A DNA stretch of 64,000 bases from Candidatus Thorarchaeota archaeon (GTDB taxonomy: Archaea; Asgardarchaeota; Thorarchaeia; Thorarchaeales; Thorarchaeaceae), in NCBI GenBank assembly GCA_019057475.1, contig DXJO01000020.1, positions 64,001 to 128,000 on the forward strand, written 5' to 3'. Positions 5,063-61,326 of the stretch are shown here, in pieces. The notes under the pieces were generated by a model. It made no database searches. It saw only the letters and a list, made by a program, of their open reading frames with translations, and had not been told where the DNA came from. Each line of letters begins with the position of its first letter. The stretch's first letter is position 1. Made by a program: the position numbers and the translations under genes.

Positions 5063-6262
5063 TTAGCAGTAGATATTACTTGGGAATTTTTCTTGCTGTC
5101 GCTCCTGAATCTTCTTTATTGCCTTGAGAAAGTCGTCCTGAGTGACACATCCTCTATCCTCACTGATTGCAAACATGCCAGCTTCTGTGCAGACTGCCTT
5201 GATATCTGCTCCCGACATTTTGTCACTCAAGGATATCAATGGCTTATAGCTAAATTCTGATTCGATATTCATTCCACGAGTGTGAATGGCAAATATCCTC
5301 TCTCTGCCCTTGTCATCAGGCAGCGGGAAATCAATAATCCGGTCAAAGCGTCCAGGCCTAAGCAAGGCTGGGTCTAGTATGTCGGGTCTATTTGTGGCTC
5401 CAATCACGGCAACTTGTCCACGAGAAGCAAATCCATCTAGCTCGCTAAGCAGTTGCATGAGAGTGCGCTGCACTTCACGGTCTCCCGAAGTCGCTACATC
5501 AAGTCGGTGAGAGCCCACTGCATCCAATTCATCTATGAAGATTATCGCAGGAGCTTTATCTTTCGCGAGCAAGAATACTTCTCGTACTAATCTAGCACCT
5601 TCCCCTATGAACTTCTGGACTAATTCTGAACCAATCACACGGATGAAGGTAGCTGTGGTTTCATGTGCAACTGCCCTAGCAGCTAGAGTCTTTCCTGTAC
5701 CAGGGGGTCCAGTGAGCAATACGCCACGAGGTGGGTCAATACCAACCCTCTCAAACAACTCCGGTTTCAGAAGAGGCAGTTCAACAGTCCCTTTAAGATC
5801 ATCAAGCTGCTTATCCAAGCCTCCAATATCTGAATACGAAACGTCTGGAGCCACCTCAATTTCCATGGCTCGAATCATTGGGTCTCGCGGGGGCGGAAGC
5901 TCCTGAGTTACAGCAAATGATCGCTGATTCAGAGCAACTCGCATGCCTGGTGAAAGCCGGTTTCTCGAGATTGAAGTTGCTACATGTACAACGAAGTTAG
6001 GTCCGGTAGAGCTTTTTACAACTGCCCTTCCATCGTCAAGCATCTCAACTACGGTCGCAGTAATGAGTGGAGACTGTCGGAGTTTCTCAAGTTCTGTTCT
6101 CAGGGTTTGAGTTTCCTTCTCTAATCGACTGCGCTCGGCATGCAGTATCTGTTTCTCTGTTTCGAGAGCACGCAGTCGGCGTTCTAGATGCCGAGTATAG
6201 GTTTCGGTGTAGGTTGAATCATCAATGCTGCCCTCTTTCTTTGCATCTGTAGTCCCTGGCAA
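5063..6262 (-). CDS. pan: Proteasome-activating nucleotidase
   Basis: N-terminal coiled coil, OB fold, [15 protein letters not shown] and [12 protein letters not shown]; C-terminus IYC (HbYX). Confidence 0.97.
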
Positions 6263-6424
6263 TGAAGGTCACCTTACGTCTTCTTCGATTGCTTAGAATT
6301 TAAGGATTGCTTTGAAGAAGTACCATTGGCAGTAGCTTCTGATCCCAACTGAGAGTTTATTGTATCAGGTCGGCAATGCTTATCTGTTGAGATACAATGG
6401 AGTTACTCGAAGAGGGATACTCCC

Positions 6425-7000
6425 ATGCCAAGCTGTGAGCTGTGTGGTCGAAATATGAAAGGTGCTGGTCGTGATGTCACCATAGAGGGTGCTGACATGC
6501 TTGTATGTCCACAGTGTGCCGCCAAGTTTGGAGGGCACACAATAGATTCCACATCAAGGAGAATCCAATTAGCTCCGAGAAATCCGTCATGGATGGGCAG
6601 CCCGATTGAGCCTTCAAGGGCCTCTCCTACTTCAGCAACTCCACGAGCTCGCGCCAAGCGAAGACCAAAGCCCAGGGGTGCTTTGCTCGAAGATATGATT
6701 CTGATTGAGGACTACGCACATGCTATTCGGGGTGCTAGGCAGAAGAGGAATCTGAGCCAAGATGAGCTTGCCCAGAAAGTTGGTGAGAGAGTTTCTACTC
6801 TCCAAGGTATTGAAACTGGCAGGCTGAAGCCCACCAAAAAGACGATTCGGGGGCTAGAGAGAGAGCTTGAAATCTCTCTGCTGGAATCTGTTGGACCTGT
6901 ACCGATAAAGAGTAACCGAGTGACGTCAGGAGGAAGCCCCACACTCGGAGATGTTGTACGTATCAAACGAAAGAAGTCCCAGAAAGACGAAGCCAAGTAA
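6425..7000 (+). CDS. mbf1: Archaeal multiprotein bridging factor aMBF1
   Basis: N-terminal Zn ribbon CELCG...CPQC, Cro-like HTH and C-terminal TLGDVV. Confidence 0.93.
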   Translation: MPSCELCGRNMKGAGRDVTIEGADMLVCPQCAAKFGGHTIDSTSRRIQLAPRNPSWMGSPIEPSRASPTSATPRARAKRRPKPRGALLEDMILIEDYAHAIRGARQKRNLSQDELAQKVGERVSTLQGIETGRLKPTKKTIRGLERELEISLLESVGPVPIKSNRVTSGGSPTLGDVVRIKRKKSQKDEAK

Positions 7001-7123
7001 TAGGTCTTATATAGTATCTAAACCACTAATACTACAGGGCCAAATCTCTCAACTACGACGTTTTCAATGATAGTACGAAACCAGTCGACAAATCAGATTT
7101 AATATGTCAAGGTGATTACTTCC

Positions 7124-7645
7124 ATGGTGCACAGCTCCTTCAATCATGACCTTTTTCGTCTTGTAGTGGAAGAGATAGCAGGAAAAGAGGGCGTCGATGT
7201 ATCAACAGTTCTTGTGAACTCTGAAGAAACAACTGATGAGGAAATCGCTACAAAGACTGATCTAAAGCTGAATGTAGTTCGCAGAATACTATACAAACTT
7301 CACGACAATCATCTTGCATCCTACAGACGAATCCGTGACACTAACACCGGTTGGTTTCTGTATTACTGGCATATCGACCCGAAAAAAGCTCAATCTCTCG
7401 TGAATAAGAAAAAATTCATGGTCTTGAGCCTTCTAGAACAAAGACTAGATCACGAGAGTAACAACGATTTGTACACCTGCGTAAACAGGGACTCCTCGCC
7501 GGTCCCCTTTGAGGAAGCAATGAATCTCTCGTTCCGGTGTCCTGTGTGCAATAGTCAACTGGAGTATGTAAACAACGAAAAGGCAATCAATTTTCTCCGC
7601 AAGCGAGTGGAGGAGCTCAGAGCTGACCTGAAAGCATCCACATAG
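7124..7645 (+). CDS. tfe: Transcription factor E alpha
   Basis: TDEEIA..LNVVRRILYKL...GWFLYYW winged helix and Zn ribbon FRCPVC. Confidence 0.95.
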   Translation: MVHSSFNHDLFRLVVEEIAGKEGVDVSTVLVNSEETTDEEIATKTDLKLNVVRRILYKLHDNHLASYRRIRDTNTGWFLYYWHIDPKKAQSLVNKKKFMVLSLLEQRLDHESNNDLYTCVNRDSSPVPFEEAMNLSFRCPVCNSQLEYVNNEKAINFLRKRVEELRADLKAST

Positions 7646-7694
7646 TTTCTCCATGTCATAAGAAACTGGGTCCCGTGCAAAAGGTACTTAGCAA

Positions 7695-8501
7695 TTGCAT
7701 AGATGCTGTCATTGTCAGGATAGGCTATCTTTGAAGATAACACTCATTGCTCGAGCATACGGTCCATACCGAGGAAGGGTACTAGGTCTGATGAAATCTG
7801 AAATTACTAACATGATTTCAGAACTCGACGCAAAGGTGCAGAAGGCAGCTACTGACAAGAGAGGTCACATCATACTCACTATCACAGGAGAAGACGAGGA
7901 ATTCATTGTTAATGTTCTGGATCGCGAGTACGGTATAGTACCAAGACCAGAGAAGCTTACGATTGGACAAGTTGAAAATGGTTACATTGTGGACCTCGGC
8001 AAAGTGGGGTATGGGCTATACGTGAATGTTGGTGTTTCGAAACCGAGTCGTATGGACGCTTTGCTACCGCTACACAAGATTCGAAATCAGTTTGAGATGC
8101 CGAAGACTCCACTGAGAAAAATCGCCAAAGCCCTTATCCTAGTTGACAATCTCCCTGTTGAAATAGTGTTGACTGGCATTGACATTCCTAATTCCAAGAT
8201 TGAAGCGGAGTTCAGCAAGCAGACTCTTGACAGAATCAAGAGGTGGAGCAAGGACGATCATGAGCGCCTTCTTGTTTTCGGTGTTACAAGAGAGCTACTT
8301 GACAGAGTTCTCTCAAAATCGGGCCACGAAGGGGACATCTACAGAGTTGAGAGAATTGGTCCTTTCGAGTATTCTCTAAGATGCAAACGAAGCACACGTG
8401 CTTCAGGGATAGTCACAGCCATCGGGCCCAAACTAAGGGGCGTTCCAATGCATCTGGTCATTCCGCGCGAAATGGAGGCGATTCGCGATGCCAAGGCTTG
8501 A
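7695..8501 (+). CDS. DUF2110 family protein (start uncertain)
   Basis: GYIVDLGKVGYGLYV OB-like motif; located after tfe as in other archaea. Confidence 0.75.
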   Translation: MHRCCHCQDRLSLKITLIARAYGPYRGRVLGLMKSEITNMISELDAKVQKAATDKRGHIILTITGEDEEFIVNVLDREYGIVPRPEKLTIGQVENGYIVDLGKVGYGLYVNVGVSKPSRMDALLPLHKIRNQFEMPKTPLRKIAKALILVDNLPVEIVLTGIDIPNSKIEAEFSKQTLDRIKRWSKDDHERLLVFGVTRELLDRVLSKSGHEGDIYRVERIGPFEYSLRCKRSTRASGIVTAIGPKLRGVPMHLVIPREMEAIRDAKA

Positions 8502-9165
8502 TGTCTGGCTCACAGAACAAGGATTGTTCTCATCTCGCCAAGTGGCAAAACGTGCAATACGAGCTGGCGGTGTTACGATCAATGGAAAACTAGCCAAGCC
8601 ATCAACTTGGATATCAGGCAAAGAAGAGGTTTTAATCAATGACCGTGCATCCAATACTCCACAGGGCTATTCCAAACTTATGGCGATAGAATCTGCACTC
8701 GACATTCAGTTTGCTGTCCCTGGTATCTTGGCTCTCGATATCGGCAGTTCAGCTGGTGGATTTCTGACCTATCTGGCAGAGAAGGGCGCCAAAGTTATCG
8801 GTCTCGAATATTCAGAAGATTTTATTATCCAATTGAGCAAAATCTCGGAAACATTTCCAGATGTTTCGGTTCTCATGTGTGATGCATTTGAAGTCGACCC
8901 TATGATTGTCTGCGGCCTAAACGAACTCGATCTTCTACTCGTTGACGTCACAACAAATCCCGATAATACAATCACCTTGACAAAGCGATTTACGCCCTTG
9001 TTGAAGAGGGGCGGCATGATTGTCGTAGCGATGAAAATCAAGCCAACAAGTGAGGAATTGCATGGTCTGCAGGATAAACTGGCTGAGCTCGGTTATAGGG
9101 ACATTCAGAAGGTCGTCCTAGATCAATCTCGGCAAGAAGTACATCTAATCGCTACTCACCAGTAA
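8488..9165 (+). CDS. TlyA-like rRNA methyltransferase (S4 + FtsJ domains)
   Basis: RLDVWL..GLFSSRQVAK S4 domain and ALDIGSSAGGF SAM motif. Confidence 0.88.
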   Translation: MPRLDVWLTEQGLFSSRQVAKRAIRAGGVTINGKLAKPSTWISGKEEVLINDRASNTPQGYSKLMAIESALDIQFAVPGILALDIGSSAGGFLTYLAEKGAKVIGLEYSEDFIIQLSKISETFPDVSVLMCDAFEVDPMIVCGLNELDLLLVDVTTNPDNTITLTKRFTPLLKRGGMIVVAMKIKPTSEELHGLQDKLAELGYRDIQKVVLDQSRQEVHLIATHQ

Positions 9166-9204
9166 GCAACGCTTTTATTCAGCTACCGCTTGGCACGCTT
9201 CGCA

Positions 9205-9271
9205 GGGGCGGTAGTCTAGCCCGGCTATGATGTCTCGCTTACACCGAGAAGATCGCTGGTTCAAATCCGGC
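9205..9271 (+). pseudogene. Truncated tRNA-Val(TAC) copy lacking the 3' acceptor strand
   Basis: 9212-9271 is identical to 9341-9400. The 5' acceptor GGGGCGG has no CCGCCCC partner after the T-arm. Confidence 0.8.
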
Positions 9272-9333
9272 ATTATGAGTATGCGAAATCTCACACAACG
9301 CTTTTAATCGGTCGTCAAACAAATTGTCGTCTA

Positions 9334-9411
9334 GGGCCGCTAGTCTAGCCCGGCTATGATGTCTCGCTTACACCGAGAAGATCGCTGGTTCAAATCCGGC
9401 GCGGCCCACCA
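9334..9411 (+). tRNA. tRNA-Val(TAC)
   Basis: Acceptor GGGCCGC/GCGGCCC, anticodon arm TCTCG-CTTACAC-CGAGA, encoded ACCA. Confidence 0.97.
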
Positions 9412-9601
9412 TCTGATTTCTTCTCTGGATATATGGCAACAACGACTCTTTTCCTTTTCGTCTTCTCCTAACCAGCAGGTCCGCATAATTATCTCTGTTT
9501 TCCTATAACCATATCAAATGTTCATCTAATAAATATACGAGTCTTACATAACTTCTAGATGCATTCCAGCTAAATTAGACATATATTTGAAATATTAGCT
9601 T

Positions 9602-9614
9602 AATAACTTTATAA
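9602..9614 (+). promoter_or_regulatory. BRE/TATA-like promoter for a putative small RNA or leader starting ~9637
   Basis: AATAACTTTATAA; the same AACTTTATA core occurs at 9698-9706. Confidence 0.5.
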
Positions 9615-9636
9615 CTCAATGTAGGGATTACTGTAC

Positions 9637-9700
9637 GAGTTCATAACCAATTCTGATGACGGAAGTAGGAGTGAGCTCAACTGACCGAACAGGTCAGAAC
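9637..9700 (+). ncRNA. Putative small RNA or leader complementary to the tnpB 3' RNA
   Basis: 9669-9681 is the exact reverse complement of 11498-11510, and 9641-9648 of 11588-11595. Ends in hairpin CTGACC-GAACA-GGTCAG. Confidence 0.4.
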
Positions 9701-9708
9701 TTTATATC
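9696..9708 (+). promoter_or_regulatory. TATA-like promoter for a (near-)leaderless tnpB mRNA
   Basis: AGAACTTTATATC about 25 nt upstream of ATG 9726. Confidence 0.55.
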
Positions 9709-9719
9709 TCGAAGGCGAC

Positions 9720-11405
9720 GTGACGATGGTTCATTCCAAGGGTGTGACAATCGCAGTTAAGGTTCCCATTAAGTGGGAATCAATGACCAAGAGAACTAAG
9801 CAGAGGCTTAGACAAATCGTCGGGCGTGACACCCGAGTCATTCGTGCCTTTCTTGGAGTAATTGAACAGCACGAAAATGAATTGTTGATGGGTCGCAGAT
9901 TGGAACGGATTAACGAAAGCAAACTGGATACACTCACGATAACTGCTGTCAAGGTCAAGCCGGGCTATAGTCAACGACTAAGTGTGCCTCATGACTTCAA
10001 GAAGCGCTTTCCAAGGATATCACACAATGAAATCCAGGAATGCAGACAGACCGCGGTGGCGCTTTATGAGAGCTACCTCGGGTTGAGGAGCAAGAGAGGA
10101 CGAAAGGCTTCAAAACCGTGCGCGGTCAACTCGACGAGGAGAATTCCACGCTGGGCTTTCTCTCAGAGATTCAAACTCTTTGAGAAGACAAATGCAACCT
10201 CTCGCTGGTGGCTCAATCTGCGGGATTCCTTTGACTCAATTCCTGAGGGCCGAAGAATTCATGATCGATTGACCGTTCCCCTGAGAATCTCGCCCTTTCA
10301 TCTGAACCAGTTCAAAAGGGGTGAAGTCAAGGCTCTACAGATATTCACTGATGACTCCAAAAAGTGGTGGGTGACCTTTGCTATACGTGTAGATACACCT
10401 GAACATCCTGACGAGTTTCTCCCACGTGCTGTTCTCGGCATCGATTTAGGAATTAAGAAGGCTGCATGTACTACGCTGGTAACTCCCACAAAGGTCAGAG
10501 AAACCCGCTACTTCAAGCAGAAGGATAAACAGGGTGTACTGCAAAAACTTGACCAGAGAATTTCTGACCTTCAGAGCAAGGCAGACACCCGATTCAATAG
10601 AGGTCAGAGCGCCGACATGGTGTTGGTGAAGACACGCGCACTCAAGCATAAACGAGAGAATGTTTCCAGAGAGTACGACCGCATACTCGTGAATCAGCTC
10701 ATGGAATACATCATTGGGCTGTCCAAGAAATACACTCTCTACATAGCCCTAGGTAGATTGAAGGGAATTCGTGGTGGTGCACGTCGAGGCAACTACAAGG
10801 GTCGCAAGTTCCGTGGAATGATTCACAGATGGACCTTTGCTAGAACCACCAACAGCCTCAAGCATCAGCTAGCACAGCTTGGTTGGCAGGTCGAGGGTAA
10901 GAATGCACATTTCAGGATTATTCCAGAGAACTGGACATCCATTATGTGTTGGAAGTGTGGTCGAAAGGGCAACCGTCCAAAGCAGAACCTGTTTGTGTGT
11001 TCGACCTGCGGCAACAAGTGCAATGCTGACAAGAATGGCTCCATTAACATCGCTGGACGACTAATTACGATCACAGAGTCACTTCATTCTGTGAGAGGAC
11101 TAGGTTTCTGGACATGTGCAATTGAAAGAGCACAAAGTTCGGGGCCGAAAGCCCGAAGGAAGACATGTTCTTCTCGAGGGAAGTCCTTACCCCCCAAAAG
11201 AGACAATGCATCTGGTCCAGGGGGGTCCGCGGCTGTTCACCAAGTTCAATCGGACCTTCTCAGCTTCGGCGACGAAACTGGGATGGGTGATAATGACCCC
11301 GCCGTGGAAAACACTGTGGTAAGACTCTCTGCTGCTGGAAGTGATGCTCCGGCAATAGGACAGGAGAAAGAAGCCAGGTCTGTGGGAGGGATTTCATTCC
11401 GATGA
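9720..11405 (+). CDS. tnpB: TnpB/Cas12f-family RNA-guided nuclease with a rearranged RuvC-II site; no transposase nearby (start 9720 GTG or 9726 ATG)
   Basis: RuvC-I LGIDLG (D242), IALG345RL at the canonical E position, PE403NWTS, Zn finger CWKC...CSTC, RuvC-III NAD437KNGSINI. Confidence 0.9.
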   Translation: MTMVHSKGVTIAVKVPIKWESMTKRTKQRLRQIVGRDTRVIRAFLGVIEQHENELLMGRRLERINESKLDTLTITAVKVKPGYSQRLSVPHDFKKRFPRISHNEIQECRQTAVALYESYLGLRSKRGRKASKPCAVNSTRRIPRWAFSQRFKLFEKTNATSRWWLNLRDSFDSIPEGRRIHDRLTVPLRISPFHLNQFKRGEVKALQIFTDDSKKWWVTFAIRVDTPEHPDEFLPRAVLGIDLGIKKAACTTLVTPTKVRETRYFKQKDKQGVLQKLDQRISDLQSKADTRFNRGQSADMVLVKTRALKHKRENVSREYDRILVNQLMEYIIGLSKKYTLYIALGRLKGIRGGARRGNYKGRKFRGMIHRWTFARTTNSLKHQLAQLGWQVEGKNAHFRIIPENWTSIMCWKCGRKGNRPKQNLFVCSTCGNKCNADKNGSINIAGRLITITESLHSVRGLGFWTCAIERAQSSGPKARRKTCSSRGKSLPPKRDNASGPGGSAAVHQVQSDLLSFGDETGMGDNDPAVENTVVRLSAAGSDAPAIGQEKEARSVGGISFR

Positions 11406-11586
11406 AGGCAGACGAAGCTCCGACTAGGCCTTGGGTAGCGCCAAGGCTTGATGGCGACATCGAGTCGGGGAAGGGTGGAACACAGGAGTTTCCGAGGGTT
11501 GAGCTCACTCAACCTATGGGAACGGGTCAGCCGGCCCGCCCTATCATTTTCAGTCACTGCGATATGGGCGGCAGGTTTAGCTGATT
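11376..11586 (+). ncRNA. Putative omega/reRNA-like structured RNA at the tnpB 3' end (may extend 5' into the ORF)
   Basis: Nested stems CTCCGACT/AGTCGGGG, GCCTTGG/CCAAGGC, GATG-GCGA-CATC and TCAGC/GCTGA enclosing CCGCCC/GGGCGG; homologue at 35206-35407. Confidence 0.75.
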
Positions 11587-11787
11587 GGGTTATGAGTTGA
11601 TTGGAACCACCAAATTAGACCGATTCGTGAAGACATTCGCGGACTCAAGATACTTTGGTTGTCGAGAAGAGCATAATCTGTTTCCTTGGAGATAACAGTG
11701 CATCTGTCATTAATCACCAAAGCATTGAAGAGCCAATTCGCTAGCCCAAAGACTTGCGGTGAGTTCCTGCGGGTTTGACCATAGAAT

Positions 11788-11909
11788 GCGGGAGTAGCCA
11801 AGACTGGTCAAAGGCGGCGGACTTAAGATCGTATGAAGATATGGGGTCATTCGAATAAGATATCCGCTCCCGTAGGGGTCCGTGGGTTCAAGTCCCACCT
11901 CCCGCACCA
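11788..11909 (+). tRNA. tRNA-Leu(TAA) with 34-nt intron (11828-11861)
   Basis: GCGGGAG/CTCCCGC acceptor, GCGGA-CTTAAG^A-TCCGC, long variable arm, ACCA. Confidence 0.95.
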
Positions 11910-11991
11910 ATCTCTCCAAAAGCAAGCACAAGATAGCTTCTGAGCGAAGATTTATGACTACGCCAATGGCGAAGAGCTGCGGAACTCATAG

Positions 11992-13356
11992 GTGAGGATT
12001 GCATTGACTCTGGACGACTCTGGTTATAGGGGCCTAGTTCTTGAGAAACTATCCGCTGCTGGCGCAAAAGTGGGTGACACAATCACAATCGACCATCAAG
12101 GACGAGAGTATGTAGGCATTCTCATGCCTCGTGCACAGGTTGGACGCGATCCTGACCATGTGGTGATAAAGCTCGTTTCCGGATACAACGTAGGCATTCG
12201 ATTGAATGAGTTGTCTGAAATTCACTCGATTAAATCGGGAAGGAAAAGAAAGCGGCCCGCAGAAAAGACTACATCCAAAGCACAATCCGATCTGCCTACT
12301 GTTTCAATCCTGAGTACTGGGGGTACGATTGCAAGCAAGGTAGACTATCAGACTGGTGCTGTCAATCCTGCATTGTCGGCACAGGATCTCTATGATACAG
12401 TTCCCGAGCTCAAGGATCATGCGAATATTCATGCTCGCATTGTAATGAGCGTTTTTTCAGAGAACATTCAACCTGCCGATTGGACGAAGATTGCTAGAAG
12501 TGTTTCATCTGAAATCAAGAAGAGCGTAGACGGAGTTGTCATTGCGCATGGCACAGATACGCTCGGAATCACTTCTGCTGCGCTTGCATTTGCACTTCAA
12601 GACCTTCCTGTCCCAGTCGTTCTTGTGGGCTCCCAACGGTCATCTGATAGACCGTCTTCTGATGCTGCTATGAACCTGATTAGAGCAACTGATTTCGTCG
12701 GGCACGCGAATGCTGCAGAAATAATGGTGGTAATGCACGGTCAAACAGATGATACATTCGCATATGCACACAGGGGAACTCGAGTGCGTAAATGCCACAC
12801 TAGCAGAAGGGATGCTTTCCAGTCAGTCAACTACAGTCCCTTATTCAAAATAGACGAAACGGGCATAGCTGAGCTGTCTGCTCCTCTTCTGCGACGAAAC
12901 CCCGATCGCAAACTCAAGATGAAGCCTAAGTTTGATGATCGAGTCACTATCGTGAACACTTCTCCAGGAATCAAACCTGATGTGATTGACTCGTACGTCG
13001 ATAGCGGATACAGAGGACTTGTACTGGCCGGAACTGGTCTTGGACATGCTCCTGAACACATTCATTCAGCACTGAAACGAGCCATAGATGCCGGCGTCAT
13101 TGTGGCCATGACAAGCCAATGCATCTGGGGACGCGTCAATATGAACGTATATCGACCAGGCGTGGAGATGCTCGAAATGGGCGTCATACCATGCGAAAAT
13201 ATGCTCACCGAAACTGCGACTGTAAAGCTAATGTGGCTTCTTGCAAACACGAAGACTGTGGAGAAGGCACATGCTGCAATGTCTGAGTGCATCGTTGGCG
13301 AGATAAGCATGCGAACTGAACAGTCCGAGTATCGAATACAGTCGGAGGCCTGTTGA
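11992..13356 (+). CDS. gatD: Glu-tRNA(Gln) amidotransferase subunit D
   Basis: KL.SGYNVG N-domain, TGGTIAS, HGTDT and GSQRSSDRPSSD. Confidence 0.97.
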   Translation: MRIALTLDDSGYRGLVLEKLSAAGAKVGDTITIDHQGREYVGILMPRAQVGRDPDHVVIKLVSGYNVGIRLNELSEIHSIKSGRKRKRPAEKTTSKAQSDLPTVSILSTGGTIASKVDYQTGAVNPALSAQDLYDTVPELKDHANIHARIVMSVFSENIQPADWTKIARSVSSEIKKSVDGVVIAHGTDTLGITSAALAFALQDLPVPVVLVGSQRSSDRPSSDAAMNLIRATDFVGHANAAEIMVVMHGQTDDTFAYAHRGTRVRKCHTSRRDAFQSVNYSPLFKIDETGIAELSAPLLRRNPDRKLKMKPKFDDRVTIVNTSPGIKPDVIDSYVDSGYRGLVLAGTGLGHAPEHIHSALKRAIDAGVIVAMTSQCIWGRVNMNVYRPGVEMLEMGVIPCENMLTETATVKLMWLLANTKTVEKAHAAMSECIVGEISMRTEQSEYRIQSEAC

Positions 13357-15282
13357 GTGAGCGACGAGGGTCGCTTTAGAAAAATCGGCTTAATGGTGGG
13401 ACTAGAACTTCATCAGCAACTCAATACATCTCGCAAGCTCTTTTGCCACTGCCCGACAGTGATTCGCGACGACAAGCCTGACGGCGGGTTTGTGAGAAGG
13501 CTCAGACCCACACAGAGCGAAATGGGTGCGGTTGATCCCGCAGCACTTTTTGAGTTTCAGAGGAAGAAGAAATTCTATTACGAGTATTACAATGATACAA
13601 CATGCTTGGTTGAAGCTGACGAGGAGCCTCCTCACAATCTGTGTGAAGAGTCCATCGATGTTGCTCTTACAATGGCTACCTTCCTAGGTTCATCTCCATT
13701 AGATGAGATACACGCAATGAGGAAAATCGTGATAGATGGTAGCAACACAACTGGCTTTCAACGCACAGCCATTATTGCCATGGGTGGCAAGATTTTGGTG
13801 GGGACCAAAGAAATCGGCATACTAGCAATCAGCCTTGAAGAGGATGCGGCCCGCAAAATCGCAGATGATGACAAAGAGAACATGAAGATGTATCGACTGG
13901 ATAGACTAGGCATTCCTCTGATTGAAATCGCAACAGCTCCTGACATCGAAACTCCCTCCCAAGCTCAAGAAACGGCTTTGGCGATTGGTCTGCTTTTGAG
14001 GTCCACCGGGAAGGTAAAGCGTGGACTTGGCACAATCCGTCAAGACGTTAACGTGTCCATCAAGGGAGGGGCTATTATCGAGATTAAGGGATTTCAGCAA
14101 CTCGACATGCTATCCACTCTTGTCGAACTAGAAGCCCTTCGGCAGGAGCGCTTGTTGGAGATACGTGACGCCCTACATGAGAGGAATATCTCTCCTAAGC
14201 AGATTAGCAGCGAACCGACAGATATCAGCGATATCTTCGCAGGATCAAGCTCCAAGATGATCAAGAAGGCGTTGAAGGCAGGCCACGCAATCTACGGGGT
14301 GCGGCTTCCAGGCTTTGCAGGTCTAGTTGGACGTGAAGTGCAACCTGAGCGCAGGCTTGGCACAGAACTATCAGATTATGCCAAGTTTTGGGGCGACGTA
14401 GGAGGCATCTTTCACACAGACGAACTGCCAGGATATGGAATATCCGCACAAGAAGTAGCCCAACTAAGAGAAGCCGTAAGCGCAGGTTCACAAGATGCCG
14501 TGGTAATAGTTGCAGCCCCGATGGGCAAGTGCGTGGATGCGCTTGAGGCGGTCGTCCGGCGAGCACGTGAGGCGATTGAGGGTGTGCCAGCTGAAACCCG
14601 AACTCCACTGCCTAATGGAACGACGAAGTATGCGCGCCCTCGCCCTGGTGCAGAAAGAATGTATCCGGAAACCGACGTGAGACCGGTGAAAATAACGCCG
14701 TCCCGTTTGAAACGGATTAGGAAAAACTTGCCTGAAACCCTGGATAGCAAAGAGAAGCGATTTGTCAAGGACTACGGTCTCAGCAAGGACCTTGCGTCAC
14801 AGATGGTACGTTCTCTGAACCTATTACTCTTTGAGCAAATCATGAGCGAGATGGAAGTCCCTGCAACACTTTTGGCAGTAACACTGGAGAATACAGTTGT
14901 AAGTCTTCATCGCGATGGCGTTCCTATTGAACGATTGGAGGATAATCACTTCCGGCAGCTCTTCGAATGTGTCACTAAGACTGAAGTTTCTCCAGATGCA
15001 ATCCCTGCAATTCTGACACATCTTGCGAATAATCCCACTTCTGGGATTCAAGATGCGCTGGATGCAACAGACCTTGGCAAAATAGATACTACCGAGATCG
15101 AGAACGTGGTTCGAGAGATAGTGGAGGACCGAATTGACTTCGTACGTGAACAAGGAGAGAGAGCACTCGGTGGTCTCATGGGTGTTGCAATGAAGCGGCT
15201 AAGAGGAAGGGCCGACGGGAAAGTTATCAAGAAGCATCTTGCAGCTGAGATTCAGCGAGTTCTTACATCCACTGAAGAATAG
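13357..15282 (+). CDS. gatE: Glu-tRNA(Gln) amidotransferase subunit E
   Basis: GLELHQQL, KIVIDGSNTTGFQRT, RGLGTIRQDVN and RMYPETD. Confidence 0.97.
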   Translation: MSDEGRFRKIGLMVGLELHQQLNTSRKLFCHCPTVIRDDKPDGGFVRRLRPTQSEMGAVDPAALFEFQRKKKFYYEYYNDTTCLVEADEEPPHNLCEESIDVALTMATFLGSSPLDEIHAMRKIVIDGSNTTGFQRTAIIAMGGKILVGTKEIGILAISLEEDAARKIADDDKENMKMYRLDRLGIPLIEIATAPDIETPSQAQETALAIGLLLRSTGKVKRGLGTIRQDVNVSIKGGAIIEIKGFQQLDMLSTLVELEALRQERLLEIRDALHERNISPKQISSEPTDISDIFAGSSSKMIKKALKAGHAIYGVRLPGFAGLVGREVQPERRLGTELSDYAKFWGDVGGIFHTDELPGYGISAQEVAQLREAVSAGSQDAVVIVAAPMGKCVDALEAVVRRAREAIEGVPAETRTPLPNGTTKYARPRPGAERMYPETDVRPVKITPSRLKRIRKNLPETLDSKEKRFVKDYGLSKDLASQMVRSLNLLLFEQIMSEMEVPATLLAVTLENTVVSLHRDGVPIERLEDNHFRQLFECVTKTEVSPDAIPAILTHLANNPTSGIQDALDATDLGKIDTTEIENVVREIVEDRIDFVREQGERALGGLMGVAMKRLRGRADGKVIKKHLAAEIQRVLTSTEE

Positions 15283-15325
15283 TTTTAAGAGCCTATACCA
15301 TCGGCCCGTCTTACTTGAATCACGT

Positions 15326-15468
15326 GCCGCGGTGGCCTAGCCTGGTTAGGGCGCGAGACTCATAATCTTGCTGGATCTTTCCGGTCAAAATCATGGGGTC
15401 ATTGTCTCAAGCCTGGCCCGAGATGAGAAATCTCGAAGTCGAGGGCTCGAATCCCTCCCGCGGCACCA
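15326..15468 (+). tRNA. tRNA-Met(CAT), probably elongator, with 65-nt intron (15365-15429)
   Basis: GCCGCGG/CCGCGGC acceptor, CGAGA-CTCATA^A-TCTCG, ACCA; T-loop CTCGAAT. Confidence 0.93.
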
Positions 15469-15560
15469 CCACTTACTGCGGCTTTGCAGGTATGTTTTTG
15501 TGTGTACTTAGTTTCTCGGTAAAGCTGAGGTCCGTACTGCGAAAAGAGAGGTTACTTCAA

Positions 15561-16766
15561 ATGAAACTCCCTTTCAAGACCCTTGATGACGTTAAAACCG
15601 AAGGAAAGCGTGTTTTGGTTCGTGTCGACATAAACTGCTCTGTTGACCCCGATACTAAGAAGATAACCGACGATTCCAGAATAGATGCGATTGTTCCCAC
15701 ACTCAAAGAATTGTCCAAAAGCAAGGTTGTGTTGATGGCACACCAAGGCCGTCCGGGCAGTAGCGACTTCATATCGCTTGAACAACATGCAACTATTCTC
15801 AAGAACTTAGGTTTCAACGTCAGCTTTGTGGATGACATATTCGGAGAGAGAGCCAAGGCGGCCATAGAGAAGATGCAGGTGGGAGAGATACTTGTTCTCC
15901 AAAACGTGAGGATGTTTGAGGGTGAACTGAAGAAGGCACCACCAGACGAAGTTGCAAAAGAGGCAATTGTCCAAGAGCTTTACCCCTTGTTTGATCTGTT
16001 TGTCAATGATGCGTTTGGTGCAGCACACAGGTCTCAAGCATCCCTTGTCGGTTTCACAACAGTACTGCCTTCAGTTGCAGGTCGGCTTGTCGAGAAGGAG
16101 ATTCGGATACTGACCGATGCCACGGCTATAGAGAAACATCCTTGGATTCTCGTATTCGGGGGGGCTAAGGTGGCTGATAAGGTGAAGACTCTAGGCAAGC
16201 TATTGGCCACTGGACGAGTAGACAAGGCACTACTAGGAGGCCTTCTTGGACAGCTGTTCTTGATTGCAAAGACCTTGATTCCTACCGAATACTCTGCTCC
16301 TATCAAGGGTTTCGAATCAGCAGTGGAAACAGCAAAAGAACTCCTAGAGAAATATCCCGACATACTAGTTCTCCCAGCGGATGCAGCTGTCGAGCGGGAC
16401 GGCAAGCGCGTGGAGTGTGCGTTCAATAAGATGGACAGTGATCCATTCCTTGACATAGGTCCGTCCACAGCCAGTGAGTACATGCGTATGATAAGTGGAG
16501 CTGCAGTGGTGTTTGCCAATGGTCCGATGGGCTACTTTGAGAAAAAGCCCTTTGCCAAGGGCACAAACAGTATTCTAGAAGCAATCGCTGAGTGTGAAGG
16601 TGTTACAGTTGTCGGGGGTGGGCACATGGGAGCCATGGCAATAAACGAGGGCTTTGCAGACAGGATTTCACACATCAGTACAGGCGGTGGAGCTACAATC
16701 AACTTCCTGACAGGGAAAAAGTTAGATCTCGTGGTTGCGCTTGAAGAAGCCGCACGGAGGATGTGA
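15561..16766 (+). CDS. pgk: Phosphoglycerate kinase
   Basis: ATG 15561; RVDIN, HQGRPG, NDAFGAAHR, GGAKV and ISTGGGA. Confidence 0.97.
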   Translation: MKLPFKTLDDVKTEGKRVLVRVDINCSVDPDTKKITDDSRIDAIVPTLKELSKSKVVLMAHQGRPGSSDFISLEQHATILKNLGFNVSFVDDIFGERAKAAIEKMQVGEILVLQNVRMFEGELKKAPPDEVAKEAIVQELYPLFDLFVNDAFGAAHRSQASLVGFTTVLPSVAGRLVEKEIRILTDATAIEKHPWILVFGGAKVADKVKTLGKLLATGRVDKALLGGLLGQLFLIAKTLIPTEYSAPIKGFESAVETAKELLEKYPDILVLPADAAVERDGKRVECAFNKMDSDPFLDIGPSTASEYMRMISGAAVVFANGPMGYFEKKPFAKGTNSILEAIAECEGVTVVGGGHMGAMAINEGFADRISHISTGGGATINFLTGKKLDLVVALEEAARRM

Positions 16767-35205: not shown

Positions 35206-35407
35206 AGGCCTGCTGAGTAATCCTTAGGCACTTGATGGCAGACAATACCTTAGCTGAGCTTCAGGTTACACTGGAGTATGATGGAAACGTCCGGCTGAGG
35301 GAGGGTGGAACACAGAAGCTTCTTGCAGTTGGGCTCACTCATCTCAGGAAACAGGTCAGGCCGGTTCGAATCCCCCTTGCTGAAGGGGCGGACCGAAACA
35401 AGCTTGA
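35206..35407 (+). ncRNA. Orphan copy of the tnpB-associated structured RNA
   Basis: 35237-35341 aligns without gaps to 11407-11511 (66/105 identical by hand), with compensatory stem changes. Confidence 0.8.
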
Positions 35408-60861: not shown

Positions 60862-61326
60862 TTCTTATGGGCCGGTCCAAGTACCACAATTAAGGGTATG
60901 CAACAGCTGCGAAGAACCTGTAAAATCTTGAACATTTCGTAGGTAGTTATGACATACTGCTCAGGATTGAGTGGTGTGGTTGTTCAATGCTGATTGCTAA
61001 TGCCTGCATGCAATTTGGTCGCCGCCAGTTAGACGGAGACAGAAAACGCCTATGGAGAGGACGTGAGACTTGTCGCAGATTCAGTAGGATCTGCAGAGCA
61101 GACCTCAATGAATCAGGAACCGAACATCAGTCAAGGACATTGATGTCTAGGATTGTACAAGTTTCGGGCTACGGCTTCTATCTCGTGCCAACTGGGCCAG
61201 CTTCCAGTAATCCTTGTATCAGTCTTAAGTAGAGTGAATTACGGGCCGGGAATTTGCGAGTGTAATACTACAGCTGATATGTTGAAGGTGCACGATTCAT
61301 TCAGTGAGCACCTGGAGTCCCATCTC

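Follow-up and report, generated by a model that had tools for sequence, protein, structure and literature searches.

A probable non-autonomous OMEGA element with a relocated RuvC-II glutamate and a long, gene-overlapping omegaRNA between two tRNA genes of a Thorarchaeota genome

Relocation of the RuvC-II glutamate in TnpB-like nucleases is already in the literature under the names Ealt, TnpB2 and RIIr (PMC10691335, PMC10530073, PMC11832414, PMC10711439). In the RIIr clades this residue has shifted from strand beta-4 to beta-5, and rearrangement of RuvC-II happened separately in many branches (PMC10691335). The TnpB2 of Thermoplasma volcanium (TvTnpB) was shown to cut DNA with specificity for a target-adjacent motif (TAM) (Jiang et al. 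2023, PMC10530073), and the Fanzor2 protein ApmFz2 is active and loses cleavage upon mutation of its alternative glutamate (E467A, PMC10530073), which is spaced 34 residues from the next catalytic aspartate (E467/D501, PMC11832414). Fanzors themselves were traced to cyanobacterial IS607 TnpBs (PMC10711439), with a DPG motif defining the Fanzor/pro-Fanzor clade (Yoon et al. 2023, PMC10711439). Here we describe a tnpB locus in a 64,000-nucleotide stretch of a Candidatus Thorarchaeota archaeon (contig DXJO01000020.1, positions 64,001 to 128,000; "the window", to which all coordinates without a contig name refer). Positions 9483-11530 very probably constitute an intact non-autonomous OMEGA element (tnpB only, IS1341-like) from a multi-copy Thorarchaeota family, encoding a nuclease of the TnpB/Cas12f fold with a relocated glutamate, carrying an overlapping omegaRNA of ~434 nt and retained by vertical descent. 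The main value of the analysis is one of correction: neither the missing RuvC-II glutamate nor the size of the protein nor the Asgard host makes the nuclease new or ancestral to Fanzors. The parts of the element are as follows.

9483 to 9725, + strand: left end (LE), placed from an alignment of 20 upstream regions, a pairwise alignment with family copy L015 and BLAST extents
9670 to 9681, + strand: LE motif AGTGAGCTCAAC, from the family alignment
9720 to 11405, + strand: tnpB open reading frame (ORF), intact, 561 residues from a GTG
11097 to 11530, + strand: omegaRNA (reRNA) scaffold, ~434 nt, placed from covariation, a codon-position test, minimum free energy (MFE) and the limit of family similarity
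11498 to 11509, + strand: right-end (RE) motif GTTGAGCTCACT, the exact reverse complement of the LE motif, from a k-mer scan with a 13-nt exact match
11531 to 11550, + strand: predicted guide segment, the first ~16-20 nt past the RE, placed by analogy with characterised TnpBs

The initial annotation of this locus had read the active site as rearranged, and codon checks and HMMER alignments bear out each residue that it named. D242 (GAT, 10443-10445) lies in the GIDLG of RuvC-I and D437 (GAC, 11028-11030) in the NADKN of RuvC-III, while G345 (GGT, 10752-10754) is aligned under the canonical RuvC-II glutamate of solved Cas12f and TnpB structures (IALGRL versus IqMEdL, HMMER). E403 (GAG, 10926-10928) follows 58 residues past G345, with six residues between it and C410 of the CxxC..CxxC zinc finger (Cys 410, 413, 427 and 430 by codon). 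The true start is probably ATG 9726, because homologues begin at that ATG, two codons on, which would give a protein of 559 residues and lower all residue numbers by 2. Homologues were collected by a word-indexed search of a 90%-identity protein collection (666 matches) and by an exhaustive HMMER search (784 clusters at 50% identity), and 60 family members from both searches, down to 21% identity, were aligned for conservation. D242, E403, D437 and three of the four zinc-finger cysteines are invariant among these 60, and C430 and G345 are each conserved in at least 90%. The only homologue found without E403, the distant P0271, has the canonical glutamate instead, and the alternative-glutamate reading is upheld by both observations. 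The sequence further matches the published alternative-glutamate pattern (D-x-G, ~158 residues, E, 6, CxxC, 13, CxxC, 6, D; PMC10711439), with a spacing of 34 residues between E403 and D437. By these sequence features the relocation itself is not new and belongs to the published Ealt/TnpB2/RIIr class. In two orthologues ~95% identical to the window protein (L055:2087-3766 and L056:414-2093) residue 345 is an Asp and E403 is kept, so that both possible glutamate positions, canonical and alternative, are acidic in these proteins.

The protein matches Pfam Cas12f1-like_TNB (PF07282) at 1.3e-10 and scores 73 bits against NCBIfam guided_TnpB, below the curated cut-off of 100, and is therefore a divergent TnpB. 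An AlphaFold2 model has a mean predicted local distance difference test (pLDDT) of 82.7 and a predicted template-modelling score of 0.77, with residues 5-475 confident and residues 482-561 at pLDDT ~30. Its best Foldseek matches are AsCas12f, OsCas12f, ISFba1 TnpB and ISDra2 TnpB (probability 1.00, E 1e-16 to 1e-11), and a family profile run against the Protein Data Bank (PDB) finds AsCas12f at 1.7e-33 and ISDra2 TnpB at 2.4e-7. The modelled fold is like the WED-REC-RuvC fold of solved TnpB and Cas12f structures. DSSP assignment on the model places G345 in strand 339-346 (beta-4) and E403 just past strand 398-402 (beta-5) at pLDDT ~90, a topology that fits the beta-5 placement described for the RIIr clades, with D242-E403-D437 as the predicted RuvC triad. 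Probable catalytic activity, as first proposed, is in keeping with this conserved triad and with active rearranged precedents: G345 and E403 occur together throughout the family and activity has been demonstrated for rearranged enzymes elsewhere, which makes an active enzyme probable. By analogy with these enzymes, RNA-guided, TAM-dependent DNA cleavage is predicted for the window TnpB.

The second part of the element is its RNA. Paralogues and protein-less copies (see below) resemble the window copy at DNA level over 11075-11511, the last ~110 codons and ~106 nt past the stop, and family similarity ends at about 11511-11533. The scaffold placed on these grounds covers codons ~460-561 and then 125 nt beyond the stop, and finishes in the right end ..GTTGAGCTCACTCAACC..GGGAACGGGTCAG. 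Its consensus structure, from an alignment of 23 sequences, has 101 pairs, 57 of which show compensatory double changes; the paired share of cells is 95.1%, against 40-44% with partners slid by 1-3 columns, and in 500 shuffles the observed value was never reached. The MFE of the scaffold is -166.5 kcal/mol (z = -2.7), G-U pairs are consistent with the tnpB strand, and the terminal hairpin is compensated in the window copy, the RNA structure being kept. Codon positions 1/2/3 differ at rates of 0.33/0.22/0.61 in residues 1-450 of 16 family genes and at 0.29/0.30/0.36 in residues 455-561, and because of this pattern we conclude that the tail is constrained as nucleic acid and not as protein; together with the pLDDT of ~30 it rules out the tail as a protein domain. 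The C-terminal ~100 residues, predicted to be disordered, are the tnpB frame read through the first ~310 nt of the scaffold, as the analysis clearly shows, and can probably be trimmed. The initial annotation had called this TnpB large. Its length of 561 residues stands, yet the catalytic core is only ~450-475 residues, similar in size to Cas12f, the remainder being a tail that overlaps the guide-RNA gene; the protein is large mainly because its frame continues ~100 codons into the scaffold. At ~434 nt the scaffold is unusually long for a TnpB.

At the left end, a long version beginning near 9483 is found in a subset of the family, and the family-wide core begins near 9632. This end holds archaeal TATA-like boxes at 9598-9615 and 9700-9711 and hairpins at 9633-9681 and 9681-9697. 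The 12-nt inverted repeat formed by the LE and RE motifs co-varies, other copies having a different version at both ends, and might serve transposase recognition or 5'-3' pairing of the RNA. Close to the RE lies a GTTCACTCA-like motif that recalls one described for the Cas1H-Asgard groups (PMC10691335); this is a resemblance only. In the proposed mechanism the omegaRNA would be transcribed with, or processed from, the tnpB transcript, as in characterised TnpBs, and its guide would be the 16-20 nt past the right end. The nuclease would then cut DNA bearing the TAM and the guide sequence, which would favour retention or spread of the element. A common ancestor of one sub-lineage of the genus would have acquired the element between its tRNA-Val and tRNA-Leu genes, and inheritance since then would have been vertical and under purifying selection.

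Set beside TnpB2 (TvTnpB, PMC10530073) and the RIIr clades (PMC10691335), the window family is alike in having Gly in place of the canonical glutamate, an alternative glutamate ~45-58 residues downstream and before the zinc finger, an NADxN RuvC-III motif, an omegaRNA at the 3' end that overlaps the ORF, and archaeal hosts in the clades. It differs in its ~434-nt scaffold, in an ORF that runs ~100 codons into it, and in standing alone where TvTnpB is accompanied by an IS605 TnpA. The nearest solved structures are Cas12f (AsCas12f, 8J12/8DZJ; OsCas12f, 9NZQ) and the ISFba1 and ISDra2 TnpBs, which share the WED-REC-RuvC-zinc-finger architecture and the core size, but these retain the canonical beta-4 glutamate that the window TnpB lacks. 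Cas12f moreover works with a CRISPR array. No CRISPR-like repeat array is present in window positions 6000-16000 and no Cas1 in the genome, which sets the locus apart from type V-F. Nor does it have the Cas1-adjacent position of the Asgard aCas1-linked TnpB groups (Cas1H-Asgard-1/2, PMC10691335). Exapted or immobilised TnpBs of the TldR type are a poor match as well, the window gene having intact nuclease residues, no partner gene and a position that is constant in one sub-lineage only.

The family behaves as an insertion sequence. Every source-named match among the 666 is labelled Candidatus Thorarchaeota, and homologues are found in unrelated genomic contexts. The genome itself holds four full-length copies (at 100, 68, 50 and 47% identity), and 40 relatives hold 0-9 family copies per genome, several of them truncated or carrying internal stops. 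For mining of compact nucleases this is a well-sampled archaeal family with an unusually long, covariation-supported scaffold and a bias towards tRNA sites. As the initial annotation had stated, no tnpA, serine recombinase, cas1 or array lies nearby, and a search around the tnpB ORF found neither a Cas1 nor a transposase gene. In the whole genome (96% complete) neither Y1 TnpA (PF01797) nor Cas1 (PF01867) was found, so that the element is immobile at present. Of 31 genomes in the taxonomic family 16 have Cas1, never on a contig with this tnpB family, and none was found in the genus; for want of linkage to tnpB-family contigs, Cas1 was rejected as the mobilising enzyme. The genome (G000) does contain two serine-recombinase genes, at C19:34772-35392 (- strand) and C53:742-1275 (+ strand), the latter with an N-terminal helix-turn-helix-like region as in IS607 TnpA. 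Both stand alone on other contigs and beside no tnpB, and they are the only candidate transposases found for the TnpB elements of this genome.

Positional fixation gives a divided picture. The same gene, locus and synteny recur in one congener (G006) and in L054, L055 and L056, at 91-96% nucleotide identity, and the segment 9419-11704 (+ strand) is present in all of these as it is here. Between tRNA-Val and tRNA-Leu of G001, G003 and G004 this segment is missing, and DNA matching the window from 11705 onward starts within ~15 nt after tRNA-Val; in G005 the gene is also missing from the site, and the spacer sequence is different. Over 6 kb of flanking genes all five congeners match this genome at 87-90% identity, so the history is most simply explained by one insertion in the ancestor of a sub-lineage. 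The ratio of nonsynonymous to synonymous substitution rates (dN/dS) among orthologues at the locus is 0.14-0.19 at dS 0.13, and the L054 orthologue is a pseudogene with a Q28-to-TAG change and an in-frame deletion. What we see is a vertically retained and currently immobile copy of an element, with no positive sign of host recruitment.

A number of points weigh against the reading as an OMEGA element and are collected here. No shared motif that could be a TAM was found beside the LE in the left flanks of the 20 copies, and in the congeners' empty sites, downstream of tRNA-Val, nothing matches the predicted guide. The missing segment (9419-11704) exceeds the conserved unit (9483/9632-11530), and what lies between the two tRNA genes varies across the genus: G005 has another sequence there and L054 a GDT1 gene. 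For both reasons the empty-site comparison shows no clean transposon insertion or excision footprint. Both ends of the RNA and the place of the guide are putative, being drawn from sequence and from characterised TnpBs, and one search for public RNA runs covering 9600-11750 listed none. Lastly, selfish spread alone leaves purifying selection on an immobile single copy unexplained.

Domestication, as suggested in the initial annotation, would have the TnpB immobilised between two tRNA genes and kept for a host purpose such as RNA-guided regulation or defence. It would account for at least four further assemblies having the gene at this locus in the same gene order and for a dN/dS of 0.14-0.19 over dS 0.13, given that without Y1 TnpA or Cas1 in the genome mobility cannot now maintain the gene. 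However, in its catalytic site and omegaRNA the copy is like any ordinary active element, no partner gene is conserved beside it, and the predicted guides of the window copy and its paralogues match no second target in this genome (for the window copy and seven right ends of the type of the paralogue on contig C42, none was found beyond chance 12-14-mers). With a multi-copy, patchy and IS-like family in every genome searched, decayed copies among its members, absence of the gene from the site in four of the five congeners searched and the disrupted L054 orthologue, we consider domestication quite unlikely, and the suggestion is not sustained. The opposite possibility, that an open ORF survives in a dead and functionless remnant, is less probable again. 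The lack of a transposase in the genome, the single immobile copy of the lineage and the pseudogene orthologue all agree with an inert relic, but the catalytic and zinc-binding residues are all intact, dN/dS is 0.14-0.19 and not ~1, and the RNA structure is kept down to the compensated terminal hairpin, which together make it very unlikely.

Kinship with Fanzors was the other interest attached to this gene: an Asgard relative or progenitor of the eukaryotic Fanzors, sharing the alternative glutamate by descent, would through its host link to eukaryogenesis. The resemblance to Fanzor2 (ApmFz2, PDB 9B0L) and cyanobacterial pro-Fanzors is real in that the glutamate lies six residues before the CxxC, the spacing to the aspartate is 34 residues as in ApmFz2 (PMC11832414) and the fold is TnpB-like, and the host is indeed Asgard, with all source-named homologues from Candidatus Thorarchaeota. 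At RuvC-I, however, Fanzors and pro-Fanzors have DPG (PMC10711439) where the window protein has DLG, and family members aligning there have D-L/F/I/V/M-G/S, never DPG. The family profile matches no Fanzor structure even at E <= 10, against 1e-33 for Cas12f, and Fanzor2 ranks only 24th by fold in Foldseek, weaker than Cas12f. The window TnpB has no N-terminal extension of the nuclear-localisation type, and no IS607 TnpA stands beside any family copy in this genome or in the homologue contexts examined. As Fanzors derive from cyanobacterial IS607 TnpBs (PMC10711439) and RuvC-II was rearranged many separate times (PMC10691335), the shared glutamate is best read as one of many independent rearrangements; descent shared with Fanzors is the least credible of the alternatives considered, and special relevance to their origin is not supported. 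An intact OMEGA element, vertically retained, is the account that we prefer.

The flanks of this OMEGA element contain one item possibly of wider interest, at the guide position. Its left neighbour is a complete, intron-less tRNA-Val(UAC) at 9334-9411 (+ strand; ARAGORN, Rfam 57.5 bits), and a partial copy of this gene precedes it.

9204 to 9271, + strand: partial intron-less tRNA-Val duplicate, found as a 68-nt direct repeat 97% identical to 9333-9400

The duplicate is the 5' part of the gene, ending at ..TTCAAATCCGGC, with a partial Rfam tRNA match at 9212-9271, and its acceptor strand is of the G001 type (GGGGCGG). In five congeners (G001, G003, G004, G005 and G006) the tRNA-Val gene is single-copy and carries a 34-nt intron. 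The pair in the window looks like the outcome of intron loss with partial duplication, or of replacement by a foreign copy. On the far side of the element, positions 11531-11546 are identical to the tRNA-Val 3' end of G001 at 14 of 16 positions, including the first 11 of 11, and to the genome's own tRNA-Val at 12 of 16, two compensated acceptor-stem pairs being different. The 11-mer that opens this segment is unique in the genome, the duplicate 9204-9271 overlaps the segment by CCGGC, and the segment also pairs as a hairpin with 11562-11572. To judge by this similarity, 11531-11546 is apparently a relic of a tRNA-Val 3' end, at present unexplained. It suggests that an insertion once took place in or next to tRNA-Val or, less probably, that the guide is aimed at tRNA-Val alleles. 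The latter idea may be put as follows: the guide would be the tRNA-Val relic, the TnpB would target intact tRNA-Val genes of the G001 type immediately 3' of TTCAAAT in the T-loop, and carriers of the element would escape through the two compensated acceptor-stem changes of their own tRNA-Val (guide positions 6 and 9). We regard this as unlikely. If it were true, there would be nuclease-driven allele conflict at an essential tRNA gene, and, with the many protein-less scaffold copies, the elements would form a trans-acting guide network. Proximity to tRNA genes extends beyond this locus: tRNA genes lie ~25-360 nt from the ends of five of ~20 family loci, where ~1 is expected, and family copies near tRNA genes or fragments are L016, L021/L022, L023, L032, L015 and L018, which suggests that the family is biased towards sites near tRNAs.

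At least five copies of the ~440-nt scaffold with RE occur in the genome without a protein gene, ~91% identical to the C42 paralogue and 74% to the window copy. They are listed here together with a shorter fragment in the window.

C18:123283-123712 of the genome (G000): protein-less scaffold copy
C21:38799-39168: protein-less scaffold copy
C21:110987-111418: protein-less scaffold copy
C21:177844-178204: protein-less scaffold copy
C34:68559-68969: protein-less scaffold copy
35233 to 35341 of the window, + strand: omegaRNA/RE fragment of ~110 nt without tnpB, from BLAST of the solo modules against the genome

These copies start where the RNA structure has its 5' edge, and upstream of them no LE similarity was detected, which rules them out as LE+RE miniatures. 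They are similar to stand-alone omegaRNAs and PATE-like IS200/IS605 derivatives, but have no detectable LE, and they belong to the C42 paralogue and not to the window copy. Several of them lie at contig ends, the assembly breaking on them, and in the congeners protein-less scaffold copies far outnumber tnpB genes.

The wider neighbourhood is of a housekeeping kind. The placement of the 561-residue ORF between tRNA-Val and tRNA-Leu, stated in the initial annotation, is confirmed by ARAGORN and Rfam. The right neighbour is a tRNA-Leu(UAA) at 11788-11906 (+ strand; Rfam RF00005, 46.8 bits) with anticodon TAA in the loop CTTAAGA (11822-11828), and because the match spans 119 nt, against ~85 nt expected without an intron, this gene has an intron. 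Upstream lie genes for a helix-turn-helix regulator, TFIIE-alpha, a DUF2110 protein and an S4-domain protein, whose orthologues have an additional weak FtsJ methyltransferase match; downstream of tnpB lie GatD and GatE. Elsewhere in the window, at 61021-61175, is a ~155-nt repeat resembling a miniature inverted-repeat transposable element, unrelated to the TnpB family, which recurs at more than 40 other places in the genome at 90-98% identity, on many contigs and often at contig ends.

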